A stretch of 63,136 nucleotides of DNA, filler included. It is 4 parts of 4 records of this genome, joined end to end, with 100 filler letters (N's around TTAATTAATTAA, not from the genome) between each part and the next. Parts side by side here need not be neighbours in the genome. Positions count along the whole stretch, not along the records: positions 41,020 to 57,751 come from SRR20825006_2128; 3 more parts are not named here. One strand, 5' to 3'. Below the pieces are notes generated by a model. That model saw only the letters and a program-made list of their open reading frames with translations, made no database searches and had not been told where the DNA came from. This document shows positions 41,365 through 57,604 of the stretch, piece after piece. The first letter of the stretch is position 1, and every line of letters starts with the position of its first letter. Both the position numbers and the translations under genes were made by a program.

Positions 41365-41655
41365 ATGAAAAAACAAGACCACACCTGTGACTTCTGCCAT
41401 TCAGAAGAAGGAAAACCAAGACCTATCGGAAACTACATCGTTGAACTTAAAGAAATTGATGTACTAGGAACCAATAAAAAAGCCTGTCAAAGTTGTTACC
41501 TCAACACAAAGCGAATATTAAAAGCACAAGCTCAAAGAAGTATGAGAGGGAGCTTTCTCAAAAAACTTAAAAAATTCAGCGTTAAGTTATTCAGTGCTTA
41601 TGTTCTGTTGTTGCTGGTATTCTCTACTACACCTATTTCGTTATGGATTTGTTAG
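41365..41655 (+). CDS. Small C4 zinc-ribbon protein with C-terminal hydrophobic helix (paralog A)
   Basis: CDFC-x29-CQSC; basic linker; TM-like tail; paralog at 54962. Confidence 0.8.
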   Translation: MKKQDHTCDFCHSEEGKPRPIGNYIVELKEIDVLGTNKKACQSCYLNTKRILKAQAQRSMRGSFLKKLKKFSVKLFSAYVLLLLVFSTTPISLWIC

Positions 41656-41707
41656 CAAGCTAAACTTGTCTCTACTCGGAAAAGTCTTTCATTGAGAGAG
41701 GTGTTTT

Positions 41708-41729
41708 TTGACCCGAAAATTCGGGTCAA
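41708..41729. terminator. Hairpin downstream of paralog A
   Basis: TTGACCCGA-AAAT-TCGGGTCAA. Confidence 0.4.
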
Positions 41730-42108
41730 TAGATTGGGTATTTTCGAACTGAAAACGATAGTAATAGGGGGGGTAGGTTATTCAGCTTGCTACCTCGAAC
41801 GTACCTCTAATCATCCAAAGAACTGGTTGAATGATTATCTCTCACAATGGGTGGCTTACTGGAATTGATTAGTTGTTAATGAGGAATTAAGATCAGTATC
41901 TAGATCATCCTTTACATATTAAACCGCATATCTCACTATTCAAACACGACCTTCTATAAGTAACTCCTAATAAATCGAGTTCGGTTTTTGGACAAATTCT
42001 ATCTAATGGGTTATTATCAAAGCATCGATTCAGAAATTCATCAGTTTTTTGGGAACTCTTAAAAAAATATTCGACATTAGTTGATTCCTTAAATGTATTT
42101 TTTTGGAG

Positions 42109-45100
42109 ATGAAACCCACCATTCTAAAGAATCTTTTATTAATTAGTTCCCTTTTTTTTGTAGTTCAAACTGCATTGGCGCAGGATATTGACCTTCAGAA
42201 CTATATAGTCACTCAGTTTGGTATGGAGGAGGGGCTGCCCCAGAGCTCAGTGAACGACATCATTCAAACAAAAGATGGATACATTTGGCTAGCAACTTTT
42301 GGAGGATTGGTTCGCTTTGATGGAAATACCTTTACTACATATGACCGATCAAATACTTCATGTTTGATATCCGATAGATTGTTAAAGATTTTTCCAGACA
42401 AAGATGGGGGTATATGGTTATTCCCTGGTTTTGCTGACACAATTGTCTCTCGGTTTAAGAATGGGGTTTGCACAACCTACAAAATAGGTGAAGGGGTTTC
42501 TTCTGTTGTTGATATGATTGAGGATGAACGTGGAATTATTTGGCTAACTGCTTTTTCTAAAGTATATCGCTTTGATGGAAATGAGTTTTTAGAGGTTCCT
42601 ATTAAAAAAGATGAAGTATCTATCCAAAGAGCAAAAAAGAGTAAAGAGGGTGTTTGGTTTGGGTACGAGAAAAAGATTCTTCATACACTCGGAGATTCAG
42701 TAGTAGAAGTTTATGATTCATTACCAGGTTTAACCTCGAACATAATTAGGATCTATGAACATCCCCTCAATAGTAGAATTTTATTAATTGGGACAAGCTA
42801 TGACGGTATTCTTGAAGTCGACTTAAATCAGGATGATTTTAATTATAAAGCAGATAAACTGCCCTATAATTATTTCCTAAGTTTACAATTTGATAAGAAG
42901 TTTAATTCTTTTGCCATAACACCAGACGGCATAGCTGTTAAAAAAGAGTCAGTGTTTGTGCCATTTAATCCATTTGATAAGGAACAGGGGATTCGGCTGA
43001 AAGCAATATTACAAGATAATGAGGGCAATTATTGGATAGGAACTGGGGGGAATGGTCTGTTTCGATTTCGGAATAAGATAATTTCGATGATTGATAAGGA
43101 TAAAGGCTTGCAGAACGAGAAAATGCTTTCTATAACTCAGCTAAAAAATGGAACTAAGCTACTTTCAACCAACTGTAGTGGTATTTATGAATGGAAAGAT
43201 GGGAAAGCTAGCTTGTCTACTATTCATAAATATTTGGATATTGGATGCTTTTGGTCTGTATTCCAAGATTCTAAAGATAGGATTTGGGTGGGAGGAGGCG
43301 CACCCTACATGACAGAATCTCTTGATAAACCAGGGAAGCTGTTTGGAGTGAAAGATGGATATACTGGTTATTTTGTCTTTGCTATAACTGAAGACTCAAA
43401 AGGAAATATCTGGGTGGCTTCCTCCAATGGAATTTTTATTTATGATGGGAATTCATTTGTAAAAGAAATCACAGAAGATGATGGGCTTTTTTATAGTGAT
43501 GCTAGAGTATTGTATGAAGATGAATCGGGAGTGATGTGGGTTGGAACTAACGGCGGGTTAAATACAATTGATGGCGATGTTGTGTCGAAGATCAAATTGT
43601 TTAACAATGCAGAGCATGCTATTCCTAGACAGCCTGAAGTTAGAGCGATTTATAAAGATGAAGAAGGAGCATTTTGGATTGGAACATACGGTGATGGACT
43701 ATTTAGAATTAAAGAAGGGAAGATTGTAAGCATCACTACGAAGGATGGATTATTTGACAATGTTGTGTCACATATTATTGCGGATAAACTGGGGCATTTT
43801 TGGATGGGGAGCAACCGTGGCATCTCGCGAATAAACAGGCAGGAACTAAATGATTACATTGATGGGAAAATTGGAACAATACACTCCTATTCTTATGGTA
43901 TTTCTGATGGAATGAATTCAGCAGAGACAAATGGAGGATTTCAACCAAGCTCGATAGTGGATTCACTAGGAAATATTTATCTCCCAACAGTTGCTGGGGT
44001 TGCAATTGTGTCTACGAAAACGGTGAGACAGAATGTAATACCCCCTCCTGTATATATTGAAAATTTGAGAAACAATGAAAAGAGTTTGCCTTTATCAGAT
44101 GCGATTACTTTGGCATATGACAATCCTTTTCTTGAAATTAATTATACAGCCATTTGTTTTAGTGATCCTAAGAAAGTACAGTTTAAATATAGGATGGAAG
44201 GGCTAAACGATAACTGGATTGAAGTTGGTACCCGGAGAGAAGCTCTGTATTCAAAGATACCGCCTGGACAATACACCTTTCAGGTGATCGCTAGTAATAA
44301 CGATGGGGTATGGAATATGGAAGGAGCTTCCCTTCAAATTATTGTAGTCCCACCATTTTGGCAAACCGTTTGGTTTTATGGAGTAATAGTCCTCTTCTTT
44401 CTTACCTCAGGTCCTTCAATCTATCTATATCGAATTAAGGTGCTCAAAAAAGAAAACGAAAAACAGAAACGTTTTGCTGAGCAACTAATTGACTCTCAAG
44501 AGCGAGAACGCAGGCGTATTGCATCCGAACTACATGATGGGCTAGGGCAACAAATACTGGTTATAAAGAATCGTGCAGAACTGGCTCAACTACAAGTAGA
44601 TAACCCTACAGAAATTGCTGAACAACTTTCCGAAATCACGAAAAGTGCTGTTATTTCTATCTCGGATGTACGTACGATTTCCTATGGGTTGCGCCCTGTA
44701 CATTTAGAGAAATTTGGACTAACTGAGGCAATTACTAACTTATTCGATCAGATTAAAAGCACCTCAACTATTGAATGGAGTTATCATATCGATCGCATAG
44801 ATGAAACTATTGCAAAGGAAAAAGAGATTAATTTCTACAGAGTACTTCAGGAAGCCTCGAAGAATATTCTCAAACATTCCTCGGCCAGCCAAGCTTCTGT
44901 AATGGTAAAATTATTTGAAACAGAAATCAGAGTTAGCTTGTGGGATGATGGTAAGGGTTTTGCAATGAAAAAAATGGAAGGATTGGGAGGCTTAGGCTTT
45001 CTTGGGATGAAGGAACGTGTAGAGAATTTAGGTGGCTCATTGGTTGTACAGTCTAGTTTAGGTGAGGGAACAGTTGTAAAATTTGTAATACCAATTAATA

Positions 45101-45111
45101 AGAATGGATAA
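42109..45111 (+). CDS. Sensor histidine kinase: periplasmic Reg_prop beta-propellers + Y_Y_Y + TM + HisKA_3/HATPase
   Basis: GLPQSSV..I.Q..DGYIW repeats, QFKYRMEG...W...YSKIPPG.YTF, ERRRIASELHDGLGQ, DDGKGF. Confidence 0.93.
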   Translation: MKPTILKNLLLISSLFFVVQTALAQDIDLQNYIVTQFGMEEGLPQSSVNDIIQTKDGYIWLATFGGLVRFDGNTFTTYDRSNTSCLISDRLLKIFPDKDGGIWLFPGFADTIVSRFKNGVCTTYKIGEGVSSVVDMIEDERGIIWLTAFSKVYRFDGNEFLEVPIKKDEVSIQRAKKSKEGVWFGYEKKILHTLGDSVVEVYDSLPGLTSNIIRIYEHPLNSRILLIGTSYDGILEVDLNQDDFNYKADKLPYNYFLSLQFDKKFNSFAITPDGIAVKKESVFVPFNPFDKEQGIRLKAILQDNEGNYWIGTGGNGLFRFRNKIISMIDKDKGLQNEKMLSITQLKNGTKLLSTNCSGIYEWKDGKASLSTIHKYLDIGCFWSVFQDSKDRIWVGGGAPYMTESLDKPGKLFGVKDGYTGYFVFAITEDSKGNIWVASSNGIFIYDGNSFVKEITEDDGLFYSDARVLYEDESGVMWVGTNGGLNTIDGDVVSKIKLFNNAEHAIPRQPEVRAIYKDEEGAFWIGTYGDGLFRIKEGKIVSITTKDGLFDNVVSHIIADKLGHFWMGSNRGISRINRQELNDYIDGKIGTIHSYSYGISDGMNSAETNGGFQPSSIVDSLGNIYLPTVAGVAIVSTKTVRQNVIPPPVYIENLRNNEKSLPLSDAITLAYDNPFLEINYTAICFSDPKKVQFKYRMEGLNDNWIEVGTRREALYSKIPPGQYTFQVIASNNDGVWNMEGASLQIIVVPPFWQTVWFYGVIVLFFLTSGPSIYLYRIKVLKKENEKQKRFAEQLIDSQERERRRIASELHDGLGQQILVIKNRAELAQLQVDNPTEIAEQLSEITKSAVISISDVRTISYGLRPVHLEKFGLTEAITNLFDQIKSTSTIEWSYHIDRIDETIAKEKEINFYRVLQEASKNILKHSSASQASVMVKLFETEIRVSLWDDGKGFAMKKMEGLGGLGFLGMKERVENLGGSLVVQSSLGEGTVVKFVIPINKNG

Positions 45112-45754
45112 ACAAAAAAGCCTTTTAATAGCAGATGATCATGCCCTTATTCGTAATGGGTTGCGGCAAGTAATTGAATCACAGAACCTATTTGATGTCA
45201 TAGAGGCCAAAAACGGGGAAGAAGCGTTAACGCTTATCCGGGAAAAGAAACCAGATATTACTATTCTTGATATAGAAATGCCTTTAGTTTCAGGATTTGA
45301 AGTCGCCAAGCAGGTTCAAAAAGAATCACTTACAATTGATTTAGTCTTTCTTACCATGTTTAATGATGAAACAATCTTTAATAAAGCCATGGATATTGGT
45401 GTAAAAGGATATGTTTTAAAGGAGAATACGGTCACGGAAATAATGCAGTGTATACAATCTGTGTTAGCAGGAAAGCACTACTTGAGTCCCGCTATTTCAG
45501 ATTTTTTAATTAATCGTAATAAAAGATTAATTTCTACCCCTACCGATAAGAATGGAATAAATTTCCTAACTCCAACAGAAAAGAATCTTTTAAAACAGCT
45601 TGCTATGATGAAAACCAATCAGGAGTTGGCTGAAGAATTTAGCGTTAGCATTAAAACCATTCAAAACCATCGCAATAACATTTGCAACAAACTTGGGCTA
45701 CACGGCGCCCACGCTCTTCTCAAATTTGCCGTTGAACACTCAGTACAGTTTTAA
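45104..45754 (+). CDS. NarL/LuxR-family response regulator
   Basis: IADDH, LDIEMP, GYVLK, LTPTEK...S.KTIQNHR.NI..KL; overlaps kinase stop. Confidence 0.95.
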   Translation: MDKQKSLLIADDHALIRNGLRQVIESQNLFDVIEAKNGEEALTLIREKKPDITILDIEMPLVSGFEVAKQVQKESLTIDLVFLTMFNDETIFNKAMDIGVKGYVLKENTVTEIMQCIQSVLAGKHYLSPAISDFLINRNKRLISTPTDKNGINFLTPTEKNLLKQLAMMKTNQELAEEFSVSIKTIQNHRNNICNKLGLHGAHALLKFAVEHSVQF

Positions 45755-45784
45755 ATACCTGATTACAGTTTAAGTACATGCGTT

Positions 45785-45824
45785 ATAGGTACAACTACCT
45801 ATACGATTGGGTAGTTGTACCTAT
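45785..45824. promoter_or_regulatory. Tandem palindromic boxes, putative NarL-family binding sites
   Basis: ATAGGTA-CAAC-TACCTAT followed by TTGGGTA-GTTG-TACCTAT; the pair also forms a 15-bp inverted repeat. Confidence 0.65.
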
Positions 45825-45906
45825 TGGAATCCTCTGGTACAAGATTGATTTTCATGTTGGCTTGGGGGGTACAAACCCATCTAGAATTAAATCCTAAAAT
45901 CAATTA

Positions 45907-46278
45907 ATGAAAATAATGATTGTGGACGACCATGCAGACATGAGGCGGGTCTTGAGGAGTATTGTTTCATTTTCAACCGTTGAAACATCCGAAATAATCG
46001 AATGCGACAGCGGTGAGGAAGCAGTAGGCAAATACATACTGCAACAGCCCGACTGTGTATTGATGGATGTTGAGTTGAAAGGTATGAACGGCTTTGAAAC
46101 AACCGAAAAAATATACACTCAAGATTCAAATGCGAATGTGGTAATTGTAACAAGTTATGACACTACCGCATTTAGATCTAGAGCTGAAAAACTCCACGTT
46201 AAAGGATTTATATCAAAAGATAAGCTTTCCGACATCAAGCAAATTTTACAAAACATCACCTATAATAGGGGTACATAA
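45907..46278 (+). CDS. Stand-alone receiver-domain protein
   Basis: IMIVDDH, LMDVE, VTSYD, FISK; no output domain; TAATG coupling to the next gene. Confidence 0.9.
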   Translation: MKIMIVDDHADMRRVLRSIVSFSTVETSEIIECDSGEEAVGKYILQQPDCVLMDVELKGMNGFETTEKIYTQDSNANVVIVTSYDTTAFRSRAEKLHVKGFISKDKLSDIKQILQNITYNRGT

Positions 46279-49200
46279 TGAAACAATTTTTACTAACCAT
46301 TACGATTTTTGTGTTTCTAACCGGGGTAGCAATGGCCCAAACAGTGACATCAATCAGTCCATCTTTGAACTCAGATGATGTGGCTGTCACTTCAAATATT
46401 ACCATTAACTTCAGTGAAGGGATGGACAATGCCACCATAACTTCATCAACGGTGATTATTAGCGGCTCAATGAGAGGGCTTTATAGCGGCTCTTTTTCTT
46501 ATGGTGCAACTTCCGCAACCTTTGATGCTGATGATTCATTTTTTCCAGGTGAATTTATAACTGTGGTAGTGACAGAAGATGTTAAAGATGCTGGTGGTGA
46601 TGCGATAACTGCACCGTACAGAACTACATTCACAACTGCAACTTCGGGTGATGGTGAGTTTAGTGTAGGGGATGAGTACACCGCAGATGGATCAAATTTC
46701 ACAGATTGGTCAATCACTGCTGATATCAATGAGGATGGGTACATTGATATTATTACTTTGGTTCCGTCTCAGAACAAGATGTCGATTTTCACAAATGATG
46801 GTGATGGTACTTTCAGCGGACCGACCAACTATACCACTGCAAATTCTTTCCAAGTTGAAGCAAAAGACGTAGATCAGGATGGCTCTCTTGATTTGGTAAC
46901 TTCAAATAATAATGCCTTCATGATGTCGGTGTTTATTAATAACGGCAGTGGTTCTGGGACATTTGCTTCAAAAGTTGATTATGCAAATGGCTCGAGTTGG
47001 AATGGAAAGGCACTTACTACTGGTGATATTGACAACGATGGAGATGAGGATGTACTAGTTGATATTATTATTGGCGGTGCAGTAGATAGTGTTCAGATTT
47101 TCTTAAATGATGGGGATGGTACGTTCACCGTAGCCGATGGGATATCCACAACCGATGGGTTTGAACAAATAAAGTTATGGGATATTGACGGTGATGAAGA
47201 TCTCGATTTTGTTGGCGTAAGTCCTGGATTGGGCCAATTAGTGACCTATAGGAATGATGGTTCTGGATCCTTTTCATTACATACAACCAGTGCTATAACA
47301 TCATCATCCTACCAATTTATTTTAGCAAACTTCAAATCATCTTCTGCTGATATTGAAGCAATTACTGTTGACCAGAGTGACGATGTGGTTCGATATTTAG
47401 GGGATGGCATTCCTTGGGCATTTGGCGCTTCACCAGCTACAATTAATGTTGGTGACACACCTGTGGGAATTGCTTCAGGTGACCTTGATGGCGATGGACA
47501 TATAGATGTTGTGGTTTCAAATGCAATAGATATGAATTTATCCATATTAATGAATGATGGAACTCCTTCATTTACAGAAAGTAATTATTCAACTGGCTCA
47601 ACTTATGCGAATTTCATTTCTTTGGCTGATGTTGATAATGATGGTGATCTTGATATTGTGATGGGGAATCAAGATGGAACGATTAAAGTTGCATTCAATT
47701 TTTCTGGTCCTGCAGTGACTTCTATTACACCAGCAAACGGATTAACTGAAATAGCCTCAAATGATAGTATAATTGTTGTTTTTAATGAAGCAATGAAAGC
47801 TTCAACACTTAATTCAACAAATGTTACGGTTGTTGGAACTACTGCAGGAACAATTACTGCTTCCTATTCTTATGATTCTAATGATAGTACGCTAACTATC
47901 ACTCCCAACTCAGATTTTATACTTGGCGACGAGATTACTGTTACTATAACCACAAATGTAACAAGCGATGCAGGTGTTGCAATCACTTCAAGCGCCACAT
48001 CAACTTTTGATATTGAAGGTGTGAATGTACAATCTACGGCTCCTTCCGCAAATGCTACGGGTGTTTCAGTGAGCAGTAACATAGATATTACTTTTAATGA
48101 TACGATGGATAATACCACGTTAACGACCAGCAATATATTAGTGTTTGGCTCCTTAAGTGGATCAATCCCAGGTTCAATTTCAATAAACAGCAACACAGTT
48201 ACATTCAATCCAACTGATGATTTTATTCCGGGTGAAGAAGTTTCAATAGTTGCTACAAGTGGTATCGAAAACAGCAGTGATGTTGCTATGGATGGCCCGA
48301 ATGTAATCCGGTTTAAAGTTCAAGGGTCCGTTGGATATATCACTCATGATGATACAGTTAAGTCGGTTGGGCAAGATCCAAGTGACATTGTGATTATGGA
48401 TGTTGATGTTGATGGGTACCTCGATCTCGTAATCACCAATGGTACCGATAATACGGTAAGTATTATGCTTAATGATGGTAGCGGTGGATATTCATCGGCA
48501 ACTACACTTGCCACTGGCTCATATCCATCAAGTATTGTTGCGGGTGATTTTGATAACCAAAACGGTATGGATTTCGTGGTGACTAATTACTCCGATAATG
48601 ATATTAGAGTATTTACCAATAACGGAAGTGGTACTTTTAGTACCGCCGATTACGCAGCTGGCTCAGGTGCAGTAGATGCCGTTGTTGCCGATTTCGACGG
48701 AGATGGTTACCTCGATATTGCTGTACACAACAGGAGTGCAGGTAACGAACAGATCTTTTTAAATGATGGTGACGGAACCTTTACATCTGCAGGAACAATA
48801 TCAACAACAAGCAATATGAACCGCATTTTTGCGGCCGATTTAGATAATGATGACGATATAGATATTATATCAGGTGGTGCCGGTTATGGATTATACACAT
48901 CATTAAATAATGGCGATGCAACTTTTGCTGCTGCTATCTCTACTTCTATTCCTTCCTACGATGTCGAATTTGTAGATTTGAATGGTAACAATTATTTGGA
49001 TTTGGTTGTTTCTGATTACAACTCCAATGAAGTTTCAGTTCACCTGAATGATGGTGATGGTACTTTTGGTGTAGCCACCAATTACACGGTTTCGAAGGCC
49101 CATGAATTGTCAATAGTTGATGTAAATGATGATGGCGATATGGATATTGTTGCCCTTAACTTTTCTGAAAAGAGCGGTCAGGTACTGGTAAATGGTGGTA

Positions 49201-52200
49201 GTGGTACATTTACAACAGGTCAAACCTTTGATGTAGGAGCAACTCCGGACAGAATGGAATTTGCCGATCTTAATGAGGATGGGCAGATGGATTTTGTTTC
49301 TGTGGCAAGAACAGAAGATGCCATTTCCATTAATTATGGTACAGAATATGTTGAGGTGAGCTCATTCACTCCAACTGAGAATGCAATTGATGTATCATCT
49401 ACCGCAAATATTACTGCAACTTTTAACGATGATATGGATTCAGGTACGTTAACTGATTCTACTGTTTTAATATCTGGTTCTAATTCAGGATTGATTTCAG
49501 GTGTCTTCACATACGATGGACCCTCAAAAACAATGACTTTTAATCCGGATAACGCATTTAAAGCGGGTGAAAAAATTAATGTAATCTTTAGTACAGGAAT
49601 TAAAAACTCGAATGGGAGTGCTCTGACAATACCCACACAATTTACATTCACAGCAGAAGCCTCTGGCGTCGGGTATTTTTCTTACGCAGTTGAGAGTAGT
49701 GTATTCCCTAATAGTGTGAGTTCACTTTTTGGTGCCGATTTAGATGGTGATGGTGACCAGGATATGGTAGGTCTTTACAATCTATATATGTCGGTTCGAA
49801 TTAATGACGGATCAGGAACTTATGGCTTTGGAACAGCAACTGATTACTTCATGAGTGGAGGTGGAGCTTCTATACTACCAGCGGATCTCGACAATGACGG
49901 TGATGTTGATATGCTTGCTATGAGAGGTAACTCCAAGTATTTGGTATTCATGGAGAATGACGGGTCGGGCACGTTTAGTCGTAAAGACAGTATATCTACG
50001 AATCAGGTGGTATCTGGTGGCCGATGGACCACGGGCGACTTTAACAATGACGGCAATATAGATGTTGCCATCATAGACCAAGGAGTTTCTAACTATGCAT
50101 TATACATTTATACCAATGACGGGGATATGAATTTCAGCTCGTATTATCAGAGTGATGATTTTGATGATAGTGCAAGTCTAACCTCAGCAGACTTAGATAA
50201 TGACGGTGATTTAGATTTTATACTAAGTGAGCGTTATGAGTATTATTCTGTAATACTTAGCAATGGTGATGGTACATATGGATCTGAAACAACATATGCC
50301 GCACCTAATGGTTCATATACTCGTGCAACGGTCGGAGATTTTGATGGTGACGGTTATATGGATATAGCAATTGCAAATCAATATTCAGAAGATGGTAACA
50401 GCTTTTCAATACGTTTGAATGATGGCGATGGCACATTTGGTGATAAAACAGATCACGCGACAACAAATGATAATTATTGGGCATCAACCGGAGATATGGA
50501 TGGCGATGGTGATCTGGATATTATTATAGGAAAAAGTAATAGCTTGTCCATCGCTTTCAATGATGGAAGTGGGGGGATCGACGAAGTTGTAGATTATTCT
50601 ATTACTGGTTCCAATATAGGAACAGCCATTTTTGACTATGATGGTGACGGAGATTTGGATATTGTGAATCCGGCATATCCCAACCTATCTTATTTAACCA
50701 ACGAAGCACCAACTACACCTTCAAGCGAAGTTACAAGTTTAACTTTCAGCAATAATTATGGTGAGCAAATTACAACCAATTGGAGTAATGGTGATGGAAC
50801 TGGAAGGTTAGTACTTGCTAAACAAGGTAGTGCCGTAGATGCAACTCCTACCGATGATACATTCTATACAGCTGATGATTTCGGAATAGGCACACAACTG
50901 GGAACCGGGAATTATGTAGTTTATGCGGGGTCTTCAAATTCAGCAGATATTGCGGGGTTGACGGTAAATACGACTTACCATTTTGCTGTATTCGAATACA
51001 ACAAAGGCGGTACTGAAATCAAATATCTCACTTCTAGTCCTGCTACTGGTAATGTAACAACAGCAGAAGAGCCAACTACGTCCGCGACATCGGTTGCATT
51101 CTCTGTGGTTAAAGATACTCGTATGACAATTAGCTGGACTAATGGTGATGGCCAAAATCGTATTGTTTTAGTTAAAGAAGCTGGAGCAGTAGATGGAACC
51201 CCTTCAGATAATACATCTTATAGCGAGAGTACAGAATTCGGTGAAGGTGCAGAAATCGGGTCTGGTAACTATGTGGTATATAATGGAAATGGAAGTTCAG
51301 TAACTGTAACTGGTTTAACTGCTGAAACAACTTATCATGTATCAGTGTTTGAGTTCAACGGAACTGACGGAATGGGAAGATTTAAAACCACTTTCCCAGC
51401 AATAGGAAATTCTACTACTATGCCAACTCCAGCTATCTGGAGTAAAAATGATAGTACTCTGGTATTTACAAAAGCAAATTTTGGGGATCATAACCAAGCC
51501 GCTAATCAAGATCGGATTACTGAAAATATTTGGCTTACAAGAGCGGGAAGTGGCTACTTATTTAACTATGCAGACGAGCTGGAAGATGGTGATAATTCCC
51601 CTGCTGGTACTCAATGGGCATTAGGAACCACTGACAGCCTTTCTACTTTAACTTTCCAAAGTTTTAGTGATCTATGGAGTGGTAATGCTAGTAATATTCC
51701 AGGAAATGATATGGTAGCTTACTTAGAAGCTGATAATGTATATCTAGATATTAACTTTTCGTCATGGACAAGTGGGTCATCTAATGGCGGTGGTTTTTCT
51801 TATACACGGGCTAAAGGGCCTGAACCAACTCCAATTATACAATCTTTTCAGGATTCAGCTGGATTTGCATATAAGTTCGATGGTGGAGATACCGAATATT
51901 ATATGGAAGCATATCTTAGCGATTATGCTATGGGAAACCAATTTAGTGTTGAAATGTGGGTAAAACCAGATTCTGTAGGGATTGACCAAGTATTTTTAGA
52001 ACTATACTCTGAATTATATGTAGGTATAAATAGCTCCAATAAATTCTATGCAACTCATAGTGAACCAAATGCGGGTAGCGGTGGGGGCGAAGAATATGTG
52101 ATTTCAAATAATATCAAAAGTGAAAATCAAAATGGACGGTCACTTGTAGCTTCTAAAGCTGAACTTGCTGACAATACCAGTAATATCGCTACAAAAGATG

Positions 52201-54923
52201 AGTGGTATCATGTAGCATTAACTGGAGAATCCGGTGGTTTGTTAACACTTTATGTGAATGGTGTTGCAGTGGATACCACATCTGTGAGTGATGTTACAAT
52301 TGACGAACAATATTGGTATATCGGTAGTGATTATGACGAGGATAAATATTTCTATGGGACAGTTGATGAACTTAGAATATGGAAATCGGTTAGGACAGCT
52401 TCTCAGATAAGATCATTTATGCATACACCATATACGGGTGCAGTAGGGCGTTTAGTAGCATACTGGCAGTTTAATGAGGGTACCGGAGGCTCTTCTTTTG
52501 ATGGTTTAAATAATTACGAGGCAGAGTCTTATAATTCCGACGAAGCTTCATGGACTTCCTCTGATGTTCCAATTGGAGATGGTACTGTTGAAGAAACTTC
52601 TGATTTCCAAAGTGGAACTGCCAATATTGGGAATGCTTCCCTTACAATGGCTGATGGTTTCGATAACCCAGTTGATGTACAGGTTACAGAAGTAGAAGGA
52701 AATCCAAATCAATTCCCATCAGGTTTTACTTCGGGACTTGGAGGTAAGTATTTCGTAATTAATTTATTTGGTGATCCAGGTACATTTAGTGCAAATCTTA
52801 CATTAACCTATGGCTCTGGTGTAATTACAGCAACTCAGCAATCCAATCCTAATCTAGTAAAACTATATAAGAGAGGATCTAACTCTACTGGCGCATGGTC
52901 AGAAATTGCTAGCGCAACATCTGCTGTTGAAGCAACTGGTGTAGTTACTTGGACTGGAATCACATCGTTCAGCCAATTTATGGCCGTTACCGATACATTA
53001 ACTCCATTTAGTCTCGAATTGGCCGATGGGGCAGATGTAGTTTCCTATAAAGATAGCGCCTATACTTTTGAATCTAGTTTCTTCCAACTAGTTGGAACTT
53101 ATACGGATTCGGCATTAACGATTAATTCAAAATCCACGTTAAACGGTTCTTTATATCTAGACCAAAATTCGAATGGAGACTATGATATAGGCACCGACTC
53201 TTTACTTACTTCTGGAAAAGAACTTACATATACACCAAGCGGAAGTGTAAAGTTGAGATACGCTTCATCTACAATAGGTGTTGAATCAGCAGTAATAAAA
53301 CTACAAACTAGCCAAAGTGCTGATTCAGTCTCTTTAGATTTCTTTACAGCAGAAGGTAGTCCAAGTCTAGCTGGTACTGCCGATGAAAATGGTTGGTATC
53401 TGTTGTCCAATCCGTTCACCACTTCTTTAGGAGATCTCTTAGATAATATCTGGACGCAAGGCGCACCCAATTCTGATGCTCCTGGGGGTGACGCAACCTT
53501 GTTTACGTTTAGCCAAGACAGTTCAAAATATGTAGCAATTTCAACCGATCTTGATACTACTAAGTTGGCTGCTGGAACTGGATTGTTAGCTTACATTTTT
53601 GCCGATGATGATAATAATTCAGGAACTCCTTTAGTGAATAATGGTTGGCCAAAAACACTTACTAACTATGGTAATCCATTTGGTACCGATGTATCTGTAA
53701 CAATCAAAAATGTGGATCATGATGGTTTATCAGGAACATCAGGTAGCGAAGGCTTTGCTTTACTTGGTAATCCTTATGGCTGGCCACTTTCTGCCGACTC
53801 AGTAATTGCAACCATCAAACGCGAAGATGCACTGGCCAATAGCTATGTGTACCGTTGGAACCCTGTTGAAAAACAGTACCAATTGGTTACAACTGGAGCT
53901 ATTGAAGCCTATGAGTCTTTCTTTGTGCGAATCGTCACTTCTGGAGCAACCGCAAACCTAAGTTTCGATTATGATGATGCAGATATAGCAGATCCTTCAA
54001 AAAAGGTGGCCAATAATCCATTTGAACTGATACTGACTCACTCAAAAAGTGGATTCAAGTCCCGTTCGTATCTACGTTTTGATGAGAAAGCATCTGATGG
54101 TATTGATCCGTTCGATGGTTATTACCTGGGCTCCTATGCAAGGAATTATTCCAACCTGTATACTCAAGTTAACGACCAAAGACTTACAATTAATAATATT
54201 CCATCAAATCTTGATCAAGAAGTTGAGTTCCCAATGTACATAGATGGAACACTGTCAGGTGAATATGATTTAGTATGGAACAGCGAAAGTCTTCCAAAAG
54301 ACTTTAGATTCATTCTTACTGAAGTAGCCACGGGTACAGAAATAGACTTAGCAACACAGAACTCTTATTCCTTTAGTGACGGACTTATGGCTAAAAAAGT
54401 TATTACTAAGGAGGCGACAAGTAAGTCTGTTGATTCGGATTTGGAAGAGGAGGAAAACATCGATGGAAAAACCGTTTCATCAGAATTAGATGAAGATGTA
54501 AGTGTGCAGTTACTAGATTCGCAATCCGAAAAATCTGCAACGGATCCAAAAGTTGAAGCTAAGGCTAAGGCAAGTAGCTCTGATGCACTTTTTGTCTTGA
54601 AGATTACTCCACTGCTTGCGTCAGGAAACGAAAACGAAGATGGGTTGGGTATACCAACAACAGTAGAACTTGAACAAAACTATCCAAATCCGTTCAATCC
54701 AACGTCAGTAATCCGGTTTGGAGTTCCAAACACAGCTGAAGTTCAACTGGAAGTATTCGACGTACTTGGCCGAAAAGTGATGACGCTTATAAACAACGAA
54801 ACCAAACAGGCAGGTCGATATAATGTTCAATTCGAAGCTCGGAACTTGGCCACAGGAATGTACATTTATCGTCTCGTAATAGGGGATAAAATACTAACCA
54901 AGAAAATGCTTCTTATTAAGTAA
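46278..54923 (+). CDS. 2881-aa secreted protein: Ig-like (Big_5) domains, three FG-GAP clusters, two Fn3-like repeats, LamG-like domain, T9SS type-A C-terminal domain
   Basis: Signal peptide (AMA-Q); many DxDxDGDxD motifs; I.I.FSE.MD..T Ig motifs; WYHVA...LYVNG...GTVDELRIW; LEQNYPNPFNP...FDVLGRKV...LATGMYIYRL...KKMLLIK. Confidence 0.92.
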   Translation: MKQFLLTITIFVFLTGVAMAQTVTSISPSLNSDDVAVTSNITINFSEGMDNATITSSTVIISGSMRGLYSGSFSYGATSATFDADDSFFPGEFITVVVTEDVKDAGGDAITAPYRTTFTTATSGDGEFSVGDEYTADGSNFTDWSITADINEDGYIDIITLVPSQNKMSIFTNDGDGTFSGPTNYTTANSFQVEAKDVDQDGSLDLVTSNNNAFMMSVFINNGSGSGTFASKVDYANGSSWNGKALTTGDIDNDGDEDVLVDIIIGGAVDSVQIFLNDGDGTFTVADGISTTDGFEQIKLWDIDGDEDLDFVGVSPGLGQLVTYRNDGSGSFSLHTTSAITSSSYQFILANFKSSSADIEAITVDQSDDVVRYLGDGIPWAFGASPATINVGDTPVGIASGDLDGDGHIDVVVSNAIDMNLSILMNDGTPSFTESNYSTGSTYANFISLADVDNDGDLDIVMGNQDGTIKVAFNFSGPAVTSITPANGLTEIASNDSIIVVFNEAMKASTLNSTNVTVVGTTAGTITASYSYDSNDSTLTITPNSDFILGDEITVTITTNVTSDAGVAITSSATSTFDIEGVNVQSTAPSANATGVSVSSNIDITFNDTMDNTTLTTSNILVFGSLSGSIPGSISINSNTVTFNPTDDFIPGEEVSIVATSGIENSSDVAMDGPNVIRFKVQGSVGYITHDDTVKSVGQDPSDIVIMDVDVDGYLDLVITNGTDNTVSIMLNDGSGGYSSATTLATGSYPSSIVAGDFDNQNGMDFVVTNYSDNDIRVFTNNGSGTFSTADYAAGSGAVDAVVADFDGDGYLDIAVHNRSAGNEQIFLNDGDGTFTSAGTISTTSNMNRIFAADLDNDDDIDIISGGAGYGLYTSLNNGDATFAAAISTSIPSYDVEFVDLNGNNYLDLVVSDYNSNEVSVHLNDGDGTFGVATNYTVSKAHELSIVDVNDDGDMDIVALNFSEKSGQVLVNGGSGTFTTGQTFDVGATPDRMEFADLNEDGQMDFVSVARTEDAISINYGTEYVEVSSFTPTENAIDVSSTANITATFNDDMDSGTLTDSTVLISGSNSGLISGVFTYDGPSKTMTFNPDNAFKAGEKINVIFSTGIKNSNGSALTIPTQFTFTAEASGVGYFSYAVESSVFPNSVSSLFGADLDGDGDQDMVGLYNLYMSVRINDGSGTYGFGTATDYFMSGGGASILPADLDNDGDVDMLAMRGNSKYLVFMENDGSGTFSRKDSISTNQVVSGGRWTTGDFNNDGNIDVAIIDQGVSNYALYIYTNDGDMNFSSYYQSDDFDDSASLTSADLDNDGDLDFILSERYEYYSVILSNGDGTYGSETTYAAPNGSYTRATVGDFDGDGYMDIAIANQYSEDGNSFSIRLNDGDGTFGDKTDHATTNDNYWASTGDMDGDGDLDIIIGKSNSLSIAFNDGSGGIDEVVDYSITGSNIGTAIFDYDGDGDLDIVNPAYPNLSYLTNEAPTTPSSEVTSLTFSNNYGEQITTNWSNGDGTGRLVLAKQGSAVDATPTDDTFYTADDFGIGTQLGTGNYVVYAGSSNSADIAGLTVNTTYHFAVFEYNKGGTEIKYLTSSPATGNVTTAEEPTTSATSVAFSVVKDTRMTISWTNGDGQNRIVLVKEAGAVDGTPSDNTSYSESTEFGEGAEIGSGNYVVYNGNGSSVTVTGLTAETTYHVSVFEFNGTDGMGRFKTTFPAIGNSTTMPTPAIWSKNDSTLVFTKANFGDHNQAANQDRITENIWLTRAGSGYLFNYADELEDGDNSPAGTQWALGTTDSLSTLTFQSFSDLWSGNASNIPGNDMVAYLEADNVYLDINFSSWTSGSSNGGGFSYTRAKGPEPTPIIQSFQDSAGFAYKFDGGDTEYYMEAYLSDYAMGNQFSVEMWVKPDSVGIDQVFLELYSELYVGINSSNKFYATHSEPNAGSGGGEEYVISNNIKSENQNGRSLVASKAELADNTSNIATKDEWYHVALTGESGGLLTLYVNGVAVDTTSVSDVTIDEQYWYIGSDYDEDKYFYGTVDELRIWKSVRTASQIRSFMHTPYTGAVGRLVAYWQFNEGTGGSSFDGLNNYEAESYNSDEASWTSSDVPIGDGTVEETSDFQSGTANIGNASLTMADGFDNPVDVQVTEVEGNPNQFPSGFTSGLGGKYFVINLFGDPGTFSANLTLTYGSGVITATQQSNPNLVKLYKRGSNSTGAWSEIASATSAVEATGVVTWTGITSFSQFMAVTDTLTPFSLELADGADVVSYKDSAYTFESSFFQLVGTYTDSALTINSKSTLNGSLYLDQNSNGDYDIGTDSLLTSGKELTYTPSGSVKLRYASSTIGVESAVIKLQTSQSADSVSLDFFTAEGSPSLAGTADENGWYLLSNPFTTSLGDLLDNIWTQGAPNSDAPGGDATLFTFSQDSSKYVAISTDLDTTKLAAGTGLLAYIFADDDNNSGTPLVNNGWPKTLTNYGNPFGTDVSVTIKNVDHDGLSGTSGSEGFALLGNPYGWPLSADSVIATIKREDALANSYVYRWNPVEKQYQLVTTGAIEAYESFFVRIVTSGATANLSFDYDDADIADPSKKVANNPFELILTHSKSGFKSRSYLRFDEKASDGIDPFDGYYLGSYARNYSNLYTQVNDQRLTINNIPSNLDQEVEFPMYIDGTLSGEYDLVWNSESLPKDFRFILTEVATGTEIDLATQNSYSFSDGLMAKKVITKEATSKSVDSDLEEEENIDGKTVSSELDEDVSVQLLDSQSEKSATDPKVEAKAKASSSDALFVLKITPLLASGNENEDGLGIPTTVELEQNYPNPFNPTSVIRFGVPNTAEVQLEVFDVLGRKVMTLINNETKQAGRYNVQFEARNLATGMYIYRLVIGDKILTKKMLLIK

Positions 54924-54961
54924 TTGAGAATGATAAATAGACTTATTTAACATTACACACC

Positions 54962-55375
54962 ATGAACATCAACGCCAAGAAATGCGATTTTTGCCAATCT
55001 ACCGAGGGGTTATCACGCCCCATCGGTGGCTTTGTGGTAGAATTAAGACAGGTTGAGATAGATGGAAAAAACAAAATGGCTTGTCAAAGCTGTTACCGCT
55101 TTCACTTAGAAACAAGTAGAATTATGGAAACTAAAAGAGTAAACCAAACAACTTTCAAGAACTTCATGCAAAAAATAAAGGCCATAAGCGTTAGAGTTTT
55201 TTACGGGCTATTGTTTATATGCTATTTTGCAAGCTACGCATTTGCGCAAGGACCTCCAGGATTACCTGGATTTCCCGATGCACCCGACGCTGCTCCTATT
55301 GATGGTGGACTAGGACTGCTAGCCGTTGCAGGTGGAGCGTACGCTTGGAAGAAACTAAAATCAAAGAAAGGTTAA
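54962..55375 (+). CDS. C4 zinc ribbon + signal peptide + Pro-rich linker + PIDGG (PID-CTERM-like) sorting tail (paralog B)
   Basis: CDFC-x29-CQSC; YAFA-QGPP cleavage-like site; APIDGGLGLLAVAGGAYAWKKLKSKKG. Confidence 0.85.
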   Translation: MNINAKKCDFCQSTEGLSRPIGGFVVELRQVEIDGKNKMACQSCYRFHLETSRIMETKRVNQTTFKNFMQKIKAISVRVFYGLLFICYFASYAFAQGPPGLPGFPDAPDAAPIDGGLGLLAVAGGAYAWKKLKSKKG

Positions 55376-55720
55376 TGCTAGCATAGTATAATCCTAATCA
55401 ATACTCGTTCGCTGTTGTAGCTCTCCATGCCTTCCTGAACAATAATGAGTTTAGGGGGGTAGAAGCTTAGTAATTAATATGAACTATCTTTTATTGATGA
55501 TTTGCTACATGGAATAATATTTAAGGCCTAAAATCGCAACACGAATTCTTATTATAGAACAAACGTCTCGCTTGCCTCTTCCCAATTCTAGGACAGGTCA
55601 AAACCATTCATCCTAAATAAATCCTCAGTTGGGTAATTGGTTTATAAAATCATAACTTTATAGATGTTGCTTTCGCACGATGTGAAAGCGTTAATTTTTC
55701 TATTCATCAAACATAATTTT

Positions 55721-57604
55721 ATGAAGAAACTTGTTCTTGGGTTCATGCTAGTAAGTATGGCCTATGGTTGTTCTCCAAAAATGGGAGATAGCCTAAAGAG
55801 TCCACTAGCAACAGAAACTCCCATAGCTACAGCTATAAACTTAGCTAACGTAATAAACGATAAAGTGTGGGTTGAGATCGATCCCGGTTTATTCACTCAA
55901 AGTATGGTAACCTATCGATTACCAAAAGTAGTACAAGGAACCTATGCTGTAAGCGACTTCGGTAGCTTTGTTGATAGCTTAAAAGCTTTCGATTATTCTG
56001 GTAAAGTGATACCCTCAACTAAAATCGATGAAAACTCTTGGACTATTAACAATGCCCAAAAACTCGATAAAATTGTGTATTACGTAAATGACACTTTCGA
56101 TATCGAACGAACAGATAAGCCTACCCCGTTTTCGCCATCAGGTACCAATATTGCCGATGACAATTACATGCTTAACCTGCACGGATTTATCGGCTACTTT
56201 GATGAACTCAAGAACAGTCAGTATACGCTTCAAGTTACTGCGCCAGCTAGTTTTGAAAAATCATCGGCTTTAGAGCGTGTAAGTTCTACTACCATTGACG
56301 AAGGCTTTACTGTAGTTGATTTATACCATGCCGACCGTTATTTCGACATCACCGACAACCCAATGATGTACGGCGATTTAGATACCGAAGAATTTCAAGT
56401 AGGTGATATCAAGATTGTATTAAGCGTGTATTCTCCAAATGGAGTGCATACTGCTGCTGAAATTAAGAAAACTGTTTTTGAGATGATGAAAGCTCAAAAA
56501 GCGTATTTAGGAGAGATGAACAGCACTCCTCGTTACGATATCTATTTATATCTAGCGGATCAAAATGAAACTTCTCCAACAGGTTTTGGTGCTTTAGAGC
56601 ATCACACTTCTACAGTAGTAGTACTTCCAGAAGCATATCCAGCTCAAGCATTAAGTGCTTCTATGATTGATGTAGTATCGCATGAGTTTTTCCATATTGT
56701 AACTCCACTTTCAGTTCACTCAGAAGACGTACATAATTTCGATTACAATGCACCAACTTTTTCTAAGCATTTATGGATGTACGAGGGCGTAACTGAATAC
56801 TTTGCAAGTCATTTCCAAGTGTATGAAGGTCTTCAATCTCGAGAAGAATTTTATTCAAAAATAAATGACAAAATTTCTACCTCACTTAGTTTAGCCGATG
56901 ATATGAGCTTTACTGAAATGAGTGAGAATATTTTGGACGAACCGTATGCATCTAACTATTACAATGTGTACATGAAAGGTGCACTTATTGGTATGTGTGT
57001 TGATATCTTGATGCGAGAAGAAAGCAATGGCGAGCGTAGTATACTTTCTCTTCTTAAACAACTATCTGAGAAATACGGTAAAACTAAAGCTTTTGAGGAT
57101 GATAACTTGATTGCTGAAATCACAGCAATGACTTATCCATCAGTTGGTGAATTTTTAACCACTCATGTTGTTGGTGGAACTCCCATCGATTACAATGTAT
57201 TCTTCGACAAAGTAGGTCTTGAAATGGGTGAAGAAGAGATTGAAACTTCCTTACTATTTGTAGGTCAAGTTCCTTTTATTGATGCAAATCCAAACACAAA
57301 AGAAATCTTTTTTAGAGATGTTGAGCTTAATTCTTCATTGAATGAAATGGGAATCCAATCAGGAGATGTGGTAAAGTCGGTGAACGGAACAGAATACACA
57401 TTAGACAATGTTCGTCCGCTCATTCAAGCTTCTTTCCAGTGGACACCAGAAACGGATATCTCTTTTGTAGTACTAAGAGATGGTGAAGAAATAGAACTTT
57501 CTGGTAAAGTAGGCTCGCCTATTCTAATGCAAGGGAAGCTAATGGAAAATCCTGAAGCTACTGAAGGACAAGTTCAGCTTAGAAATTGGTGGTTAGAGAA
57601 GTAA
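55721..57604 (+). CDS. M61 glycyl aminopeptidase family lipoprotein with PDZ-like domain
   Basis: Lipobox YGC; GALEH; SHEFFH; LWMYEGVTEY. Confidence 0.92.
   Translation: MKKLVLGFMLVSMAYGCSPKMGDSLKSPLATETPIATAINLANVINDKVWVEIDPGLFTQSMVTYRLPKVVQGTYAVSDFGSFVDSLKAFDYSGKVIPSTKIDENSWTINNAQKLDKIVYYVNDTFDIERTDKPTPFSPSGTNIADDNYMLNLHGFIGYFDELKNSQYTLQVTAPASFEKSSALERVSSTTIDEGFTVVDLYHADRYFDITDNPMMYGDLDTEEFQVGDIKIVLSVYSPNGVHTAAEIKKTVFEMMKAQKAYLGEMNSTPRYDIYLYLADQNETSPTGFGALEHHTSTVVVLPEAYPAQALSASMIDVVSHEFFHIVTPLSVHSEDVHNFDYNAPTFSKHLWMYEGVTEYFASHFQVYEGLQSREEFYSKINDKISTSLSLADDMSFTEMSENILDEPYASNYYNVYMKGALIGMCVDILMREESNGERSILSLLKQLSEKYGKTKAFEDDNLIAEITAMTYPSVGEFLTTHVVGGTPIDYNVFFDKVGLEMGEEEIETSLLFVGQVPFIDANPNTKEIFFRDVELNSSLNEMGIQSGDVVKSVNGTEYTLDNVRPLIQASFQWTPETDISFVVLRDGEEIELSGKVGSPILMQGKLMENPEATEGQVQLRNWWLEK

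Follow-up and report, generated by a model that had tools for sequence, protein, structure and literature searches.

A Probable Repeated Surface-Protein Cassette of Balneolaceae with an Unnamed, Putatively Nuclease-Dead Zinc-Finger Family

Results and Discussion

The module described here is very probably one copy of a repeated Balneolaceae cassette, in which a sensor system is followed, in some copies after a lone receiver, by a T9SS cargo and then by a PID-CTERM micro-protein, with or without a small zinc-finger domain referred to as ZN. ZN is an unnamed zinc-finger family of marine and saline Balneolales, and the parts surrounding it are mostly of ordinary, known kinds. Sequence comparison establishes the identities of the genes, the order of the cassette, a conserved box, the ZN family itself, its loss of the HNH catalytic residues and its three C-terminal forms.

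Locus and Gene Inventory

The DNA analyzed, referred to as the window, is a stretch of 63,136 nucleotides (filler included) made of four joined contigs with GC contents of 60, 42, 38 and 68%. These contigs probably belong to different organisms, so that genes lying across the N spacers are not neighbors. The module sits on the third contig (41020-57751, 16.7 kb), which is placed in Balneolaceae because gene B is 97% identical to a protein of an uncultured Balneolaceae bacterium (L002); in the nearest genome by word share, gene B had no match better than E 0.1. The sequence was confirmed, and a near strain was seen, in contigs from four sequencing runs of unrecorded kind; the terminal letters of the run X3 contigs are presumably a template-switch adaptor. 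The Rfam search gave 0 matches, and the sigma-70 promoter scan returned 44 against 55.5 in shuffles, i.e., it performed no better than shuffles. The features of the module are as follows.

41365-41655, +: gene A, 96 aa; ZN domain, basic amphipathic helix and hydrophobic helix, without PID-CTERM
41386-41499, +: ZN domain of gene A, CxxC-x29-CxxC-Y
41708-41729, +: 10-bp perfect inverted repeat 3' of gene A, candidate terminator hairpin
42103-45111, +: sensor kinase, 1002 aa; periplasmic propeller and Y_Y_Y, one TM helix, HisKA_3 (His811), HATPase_c
45104-45754, +: NarL/LuxR-type response regulator, 216 aa; REC Asp56 and GerE HTH
45785-45824, +: tandem palindromic box, two AGGTA-N4-TACCT-like units, about 120 nt 5' of the receiver gene
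45907-46278, +: stand-alone receiver, 123 aa, Asp54; its stop overlaps the cargo start
46278-54923, +: T9SS cargo, 2881 aa; signal peptide, four Big_5, many FG-GAP repeats, fn3, LamG, type A CTD
54962-55375, +: gene B, 137 aa; ZN domain fused N-terminal to a PID-CTERM micro-protein precursor
54983-55096, +: ZN domain of gene B
55166-55246, +: internal Met69 to Ala95 of gene B, signal-peptide-like segment ending A-F-A↓Q, delimited by eye and alignment
55295-55363, +: PID-CTERM sorting domain of gene B, residues 112-134; NF046080, 36.8 bits (cut-off 26)
55664-57604, +: M61 peptidase with PDZ domain; downstream neighbor, not a constant part of the cassette

As originally predicted, the kinase, the NarL regulator, the palindromic repeat, the lone receiver and the 2881-aa FG-GAP T9SS protein are all present on the + strand. 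The propeller domains of the kinase are Reg_prop in a Pfam-type domain scan, and a two-component system is recognizable from the HisKA_3 and HATPase domains of the kinase, the REC and GerE domains of the regulator and the presence of the phospho-acceptor residues. The type A CTD of the cargo scores 38.8 bits against the curated TIGR04183 cut-off of 23. A T9SS type A cargo (TIGR04183 / PF18962) that follows a propeller kinase of Bacteroidota type and a NarL regulator is of a known kind, with all domains passing curated cut-offs; compared with ordinary loci of this type, the window cassette adds the tandem palindromic box and the ZN/PID tail.

The predicted sharing of an ungapped 38-aa domain by two small + strand genes was likewise borne out: both are open frames, 23 of the 38 residues are identical, and the corresponding DNA block is identical at 72 of 114 positions. 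By BLASTP, the two products are 43% identical over 83 aa (E 9e-23), and their residues 1-70 carry net charges of +9 (gene A) and +4 (gene B). The K.K..SV..F motif also claimed as shared is not conserved across 28 aligned relatives and is part of the basic amphipathic helix or signal-peptide n-region. A basic stretch followed by a hydrophobic helix describes gene A correctly; gene B ends in a curated PID-CTERM domain. No NCBIfam model matches gene A, so that a PID-CTERM domain is not assigned to it, and no PID-CTERM remnant was found in the DNA downstream of it.

The relatives of gene B align over the whole succession of zinc finger, linker, basic helix, hydrophobic helix, A-x-A↓Q, Pro-rich peptide and PID-CTERM, with A-x-A↓Q conserved at 90% or more. 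Signal-peptidase cleavage at this site is a prediction, as is exosortase cleavage, and Met69 is a possible second start. In the AlphaFold model of gene B (pLDDT 77.5, pTM 0.39), the finger is followed by a single long helix up to residue 95, then by a loose linker and finally by a helix at the C-terminus. The signal-peptide-like segment, the Pro-rich peptide, PIDGG, the TM helix and the basic tail are all shared with the PID-CTERM/XrtX system (NF046080 / NF046081; PF28310), and the PID-CTERM of gene B is likely a substrate of exosortase XrtX. What gene B adds to that system is an N-terminal, presumably cytoplasmic, C4 zinc finger, an addition found in a minority of the copies per genome.

The ZN Family

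Searches with an alignment of 52 ZN domain sequences detected the domain in 50 of 216 Balneolaceae genomes, with 146 matches in all and 1-8 in a genome, in 52 of 283 genomes of the order and in 33 of 401 genomes of a phylum sample, all 33 being also among the family positives. It went undetected in 166 of the 216 family genomes, for which completeness is not given, so that a miss does not amount to an absence. The profile matched 139 of 1.84 billion representatives at E<=0.001. Of these, 106 are soluble, 11 have a TM helix and 11 are fused to PID; 5 lack the full motif, and another 6, all long repeat proteins, were set aside. The DNA around the family matches yielded 142 ZN frames in 50 genomes, reduced to 141 after one cut duplicate was dropped; these comprise 99 soluble, 37 PID-fused and 5 TM frames, as classed by purpose-built HMMs and a hydrophobicity cut. 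Both CxxC motifs are found in 130 of the 141 frames and a 29-residue spacer in 118, and the conserved positions are the four Cys, a Gly, Val-x-Leu and a Gln. The dN/dS ratio of the ZN domain is 0.15 over 28 independent pairs, which indicates a real protein domain, and 0.10 for 11 fused pairs; the domain is under purifying selection, strong in the fused form.

Three C-terminal forms occur: an amphipathic tail, a TM helix, and a signal peptide with PID-CTERM. The tails of the soluble members are basic, aromatic and amphipathic, with an amphipathic moment of 0.52 (n=80) vs 0.43 in shuffles, none of 200 of which reached 0.52, and 0.41 for 951 control C-termini. Every form thus carries a plausible inner-membrane targeting element, and all three may be directed to that membrane. 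Membrane tethering, as originally proposed for the two window genes, therefore survives as a recurrent tendency toward membrane targeting, but most ZN genes (99/141) encode soluble proteins with amphipathic tails.

The statement that the domain belongs to no named family holds, in that no curated family matches it. Pfam gave no match to the product of gene A or gene B at E<=0.1, PHROG gave none to either, and none of the 52 ZN members reached the Pfam cut-off among the best 25 of 35 families (best E 0.0055). No PDB chain was matched by sequence (best E 0.2), and Foldseek returned nothing at E<=0.001 in PDB or BFVD. In the ESM Atlas, a full-length relative fell with PID_CTERM clusters at 0.76-0.77, and the ZN domain returned FpoO and unnamed clusters, nothing else. 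FpoO (PF10621) was rejected as an identity: the Atlas value of 0.93 comes from only 137 shared features, and Pfam gives no match to either gene at E<=0.1.

HNH Ancestry and Fold

The most distant credible matches in the ZN profile search are six HNH proteins (E 7.5e-5 to 9.5e-4), which match PHROG HNH families, best phrog_1571. Five of them were aligned and compared with ZN by hhalign, giving 96.9% and E 1.7e-10 for relatives that had been picked through the ZN profile match itself. The ZN proteins themselves match no HNH profile in Pfam and PHROG scans. The scaffold CxxC..G.PHP/RP..G..V.L...LCQxC and the layout of zinc knuckle, hairpin and helix are common to ZN and the phage-type HNH (PHROG 1571; His-Me finger), from which ZN differs in its missing catalytic residues, shorter spacer and additional membrane-targeting tail.

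In PMC5714182, the His-Me finger, which is linked there to the treble clef, is defined by three residues: a catalytic His that follows strand 1, an omega-loop Asn and a His/Asn within the helix. Inspection of these positions separates the two groups: the catalytic His at the end of strand 1 is found in 5/130 ZN cores vs 6/6 HNH relatives, the metal-binding His/Asn of the helix in 4/130 vs 5/6, and the omega-loop Asn in 17/130 vs 5/6. No ZN core of the 130 combines the catalytic His with the helix His/Asn, and none has all three. Furthermore, the omega loop of ZN is shorter by 7-10 residues, the spacer being mostly 29 residues vs 36-39 in the HNH relatives. The missing catalytic residues and the shorter loop indicate that ZN is not an HNH nuclease, and an absence of nuclease activity is predicted from the lost residues. 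Collectively, ZN appears to be a nuclease-dead treble clef of HNH ancestry; it probably derives from an HNH nuclease, the direction of descent being inferred.

The AlphaFold model of ZN (pLDDT 86.7) is a hairpin plus helix, and its likeness to HNH chains is weak (Z 2.8-3.5, with ZRANB3 HNH at 3.5). The best fold match, also weak, is the N-domain of Lsr2 (4e1p; Z 5.0, rmsd 1.6, 45 aligned), which is the dimerization and not the DNA-binding domain of that protein; the ClpX ZBD (2ds5) follows at Z 4.0 (rmsd 3.9, 43 aligned; weak) and the ClpG ZBD (8p66) at a Foldseek E of 0.6. The likeness of ZN to these treble-clef adaptor domains lies in the score range of common arrangements.

The T9SS Cargo/PID-CTERM Cassette

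Scoring of the neighborhoods recovered by the domain search showed that, as anticipated, ZN recurs beside T9SS cargo, PID-CTERM and two-component genes. All 37 ZN-PID fusions lie directly behind a same-strand T9SS-CTD gene, and 27 of the 37 have a kinase, receiver or LuxR gene no more than three genes away. Among the 99 soluble ZN genes, 16 lie behind a CTD gene and 6 behind a PID gene, 61 lack any kinase, receiver or LuxR gene up to three genes away, and 33 face typA in convergent orientation. Plain PID-CTERM genes, without ZN, follow CTD genes in 47 of 62 cases and are thus nearly as faithful to them, so that ZN is dispensable for the cassette. Accordingly, the predicted association with these neighbors is recurrent, but it is common to ZN-less PID-CTERM genes, and the majority of soluble ZN genes have no regulator nearby. 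The gene following a CTD gene was PID in 47, ZN-PID in 38, unfused ZN in 18 and another in 40 of 143 cases, all taken from ZN- or PID-centered loci, so that these counts are not genome rates.

An internal Met, located 18-40 residues before the A↓Q site in an A-rich context 5' of the signal peptide, is kept in 34 of the 37 fusions, and the unfused orders CTD > ZN > PID and CTD > PID > ZN both exist. The retained Met and the side-by-side unfused genes mark ZN-PID as a fusion of two separable units. Fused and unfused ZN forms are interleaved on the tree, forcing at least 3 changes; this was a quick tree of 69 columns, in which 64 of 132 inner branches are open. As a separate observation, the recG-typA interval, which holds a ZN gene in 33 cases, is a frequent site of T9SS cargo, PID and regulator genes (e.g., L093, L100, L125, L131).

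The machinery expected to handle these products was found in five relatives: one exosortase PF09721 in each of the five, above the XrtX cut-off (NF046081) in all three of those scanned, 5-12 PID-CTERM genes per relative, and the T9SS sortase PorU over cut-off in 5/5. The action proposed for exosortases is cleavage close to the sorting motif, after which the new C-terminus is joined to an unknown group (PMC7468200), and surface colonization by Flavobacterium needs XrtF (PMC10936215). The T9SS itself may be unusual. In each of five Balneolaceae genomes (G002-G006) there are 37 or more CTD-like matches; GldL was undetected in 5/5 of them in a search in which no positive control gave a signal, and GldM was undetected in 2/2 genomes, with the control G001 positive. 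The Balneolaceae T9SS is possibly motor-less or divergent.

Origin of the Two ZN Copies

The occurrence of two ZN genes around one module can be followed at the groEL locus. In G002 the order is groES, groEL, hybrid kinase, gene A, kinase, regulator, receiver, cargo and gene B. The same locus of G004 holds related modules with gene A missing, and the contig of G003 begins just 5' of the kinase and is uninformative on gene A. In G234 and G005, the groEL locus carries a hybrid kinase, a giant cargo and a ZN-PID gene, and it is the ZN-PID proteins of these two genomes that are, after its own strain variant, the nearest tree rows of gene A, with identities of 47% and 52%. DNA comparison agrees in that the nearest relatives of gene A end a different cassette at the groEL locus. 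In a set of 16 related kinase genes, the gene immediately 5' is a ZN-PID in 4 cases and a PID in 2, in each case from the previous cassette. Gene A most likely represents the truncated remainder of another cassette whose cargo was lost, and gene B is best taken to close the cassette that follows; a search of the gap at gene A detected no cargo remnant (best E 0.33).

These findings bear directly on the original prediction that genes A and B form a dedicated membrane zinc-ribbon pair, bracketing the module and coupling secretion or anchoring of the giant protein to this two-component system. In the window as in G002, the two genes do lie on either side of the module, and gene B occurs together with the cargo and the box. 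The bracket nevertheless does not hold, since G004 has the block without gene A and gene A is the positional counterpart of the G234/G005 ZN-PID, its nearest relatives by tree path and DNA ending another groEL-locus cassette. Moreover, gene A differs from its G002 copy by 1 synonymous and 5 non-synonymous codon changes (small numbers), and no box was found upstream of it. A dedicated pair is consequently the least probable of the readings considered, and a highly improbable one.

The Tandem Box and Other Upstream Motifs

The repeat at 45785-45824 contains a perfect 15-bp inverted repeat, occurs once in the window contig and exemplifies a 40-bp tandem palindrome found after regulator genes of this type. 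The box lies about 120 nt 5' of 14 of 22 lone-receiver genes, with 3 of the 22 having no upstream DNA. It also precedes 7/99 soluble, 0/37 fused and 0/5 TM ZN genes, against 5/695 controls. The intergenic sequence of G003 differs from that of the window yet conforms to the box, and in a variant contig of one run 124 bases around it (window 45739-45864) are swapped for 125 other letters. NarL-type regulators bind inverted heptamers. Together with the position and conservation of the box, this suggests that it is bound by the NarL-type regulator, which would link ZN to the NarL-type system.

Genome-wide, a sequence model built from 28 sites detects the box in 31/50 ZN-bearing vs 1/20 ZN-lacking genomes, at 1-6 sites per genome. 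Of the 30 genomes with strong sites, 19 have a same-strand ZN gene downstream of the box and no more than 12 kb from it (fused in 11, soluble in 8), against 0.34 expected by chance and 7 on the upstream side; because the training loci were ZN-centered and the genomes are close kin, these statistics are partly circular and overstate independence.

A different motif, a direct repeat with an 11-bp period, lies 5' of 23/98 soluble ZN genes vs 5/908 controls and is a candidate site for TPR-LuxR regulators. The same repeat precedes two nearby TPR-LuxR genes (L128:13420, L135:8251, L154:7903 and others), and a 943-aa neighbor at these ZN loci has no Pfam match. Another direct repeat, which we take to be pho-box-like, lies 5' of a 95-aa ZN gene heading a run of TPR kinase, regulator and T9SS cargo (L207:7874, L210:7837, L213:7864).

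Proposed Mechanism and Alternative Explanations

Taken as a whole, the module is best, if tentatively, explained as a sensor-induced surface-protein cassette that co-expresses a membrane-localized, nuclease-dead regulatory adaptor. The propeller kinase would phosphorylate the NarL-type regulator, which would then bind the tandem box and switch on the receiver, the cargo and gene B. The giant cargo would be exported by Sec and then by the T9SS, while the product of gene B would insert N-in and be cut by signal peptidase at A95↓Q96. The C-terminal product of this cut would be a short Pro-rich peptide held by PID-CTERM, a substrate of XrtX, and the N-terminal product a zinc finger of about 95 aa that stays at the inner membrane, on its cytoplasmic side. 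The micro-protein might also be started alone from Met69. The finger would act as a small membrane-localized protein-binding adaptor, co-induced with the cassette, that tunes signaling or cargo handling. This adaptor role is itself possible rather than probable, and a coupling of secretion to regulation through ZN is hypothetical. The ZN misses, the regulator-free soluble genes, the weak fold matches and the cleavage site placed by eye count against the explanation as a whole. In addition, ZN paralogues sit behind at least two different boxes, so that a regulator-specific feedback role needs several partners. The complex prediction of a kinase dimer (residues 777-1002, two copies) with the ZN of gene B, run without alignments, scored 0.00 and speaks neither for nor against.

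Two other functions of ZN must be weighed against the adaptor, and both rank below it and above the dedicated pair. ZN may have kept the nucleic-acid binding of HNH proteins and be a membrane-anchored DNA or RNA binder, which could tether the cargo mRNA or locus, or be a regulator freed by intramembrane proteolysis of the spent signal peptide. The HNH kinship and the basic N-terminal halves of both products (+9 and +4) are consistent with such a role, and a dead His-Me finger that still binds DNA is known in Smad MH1 (PMC5714182). The top fold match to Lsr2 (Z 5.0) could be read in the same sense, but it is to the dimerization domain; the omega loop has lost 7-10 residues, and the conserved ZN positions look structural and are largely common to the HNH relatives. 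Nucleic-acid binding is unlikely, although it comes second in our ranking. Slightly less likely still, ZN would be an independent small-protein family, e.g., a metal/redox stress protein or a protease adaptor, present in the cassette for positional reasons, an upstream ZN gene having repeatedly lost its stop and become fused to a PID-CTERM gene that still starts at its own Met. The Met kept in 34/37 fusions, the two unfused gene orders, the interleaving of forms on the quick 69-column tree (at least 3 changes), the predominance of stand-alone members and the position of some paralogue groups 5' of M48 or M28 peptidase or sigma-70 genes all fit this account. Purely positional presence is harder to reconcile with the box lying directly 5' of seven stand-alone ZN genes, with the unfused ZN that follows 18 of 143 CTD genes in ZN-centered loci, and with the strong purifying selection on the fused domain.

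A bolder version of the adaptor reading can be formulated, in which ZN-PID is a two-compartment polyprotein that reports export back to the two-component system or promoter. One signal-peptidase cut would release an exosortase-processed envelope peptide traveling with the giant T9SS cargo, and the domesticated, nuclease-dead HNH finger would stay at the inner membrane or be freed by intramembrane proteolysis. We regard this combination as improbable; if true, it would be a secretion-coupled feedback device made from a phage nuclease and a spent signal peptide.

Among known systems, the closest functional analogy to the adaptor is Caulobacter ZitP, described in PMC5182063 as a bitopic zinc-finger regulator of pilus biogenesis. 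ZN resembles it in having a putative cytoplasmic finger on a membrane anchor tied to a surface structure, an analogy of working and not of descent; unlike proteins of the ZitP/AgmX type, ZN has no Zn_ribbon_4/5 family match (Zn_ribbon_4 in 2/52 members, E 0.27) and no large periplasmic domain. In open-access main text, no precedent was found for a small zinc-finger protein with an amphipathic tail in histidine-kinase feedback, nor a description of the tandem box, of an HNH-derived ZN family or of its fusion ahead of a signal peptide; the same text yielded no paper using the term PID-CTERM and nothing relevant on XrtX. No paper was found on this T9SS/two-component cassette in Balneola or on CTERM sorting in Bacteroidota.

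ZN is thus an unnamed, lineage-expanded family of small proteins, apparently a domesticated HNH scaffold re-used at the membrane, and its cassette ties the family, the putative PID-CTERM/XrtX sorting system and giant T9SS cargo to one testable regulator box. The full cassette is present in a cultured organism, Gracilimonas tropica DSM 19535 (locus L013), which makes both the role of an exosortase micro-substrate and that of a functional domain on the cytoplasmic end of a signal peptide testable.

Further subgroups of the family are found next to other genes. In about nine genomes, the gene for an M48 CAAX-type membrane protease is headed by a ZN gene of one soluble subgroup (L173:7946 and related loci), and another subgroup precedes an M28 peptidase gene. 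A TM-anchored subgroup lies directly 5' of a 284-aa sigma-70 gene in three genomes (L182:7944, L191:7848, L212:7883), a candidate anti-sigma-like pair worth testing.
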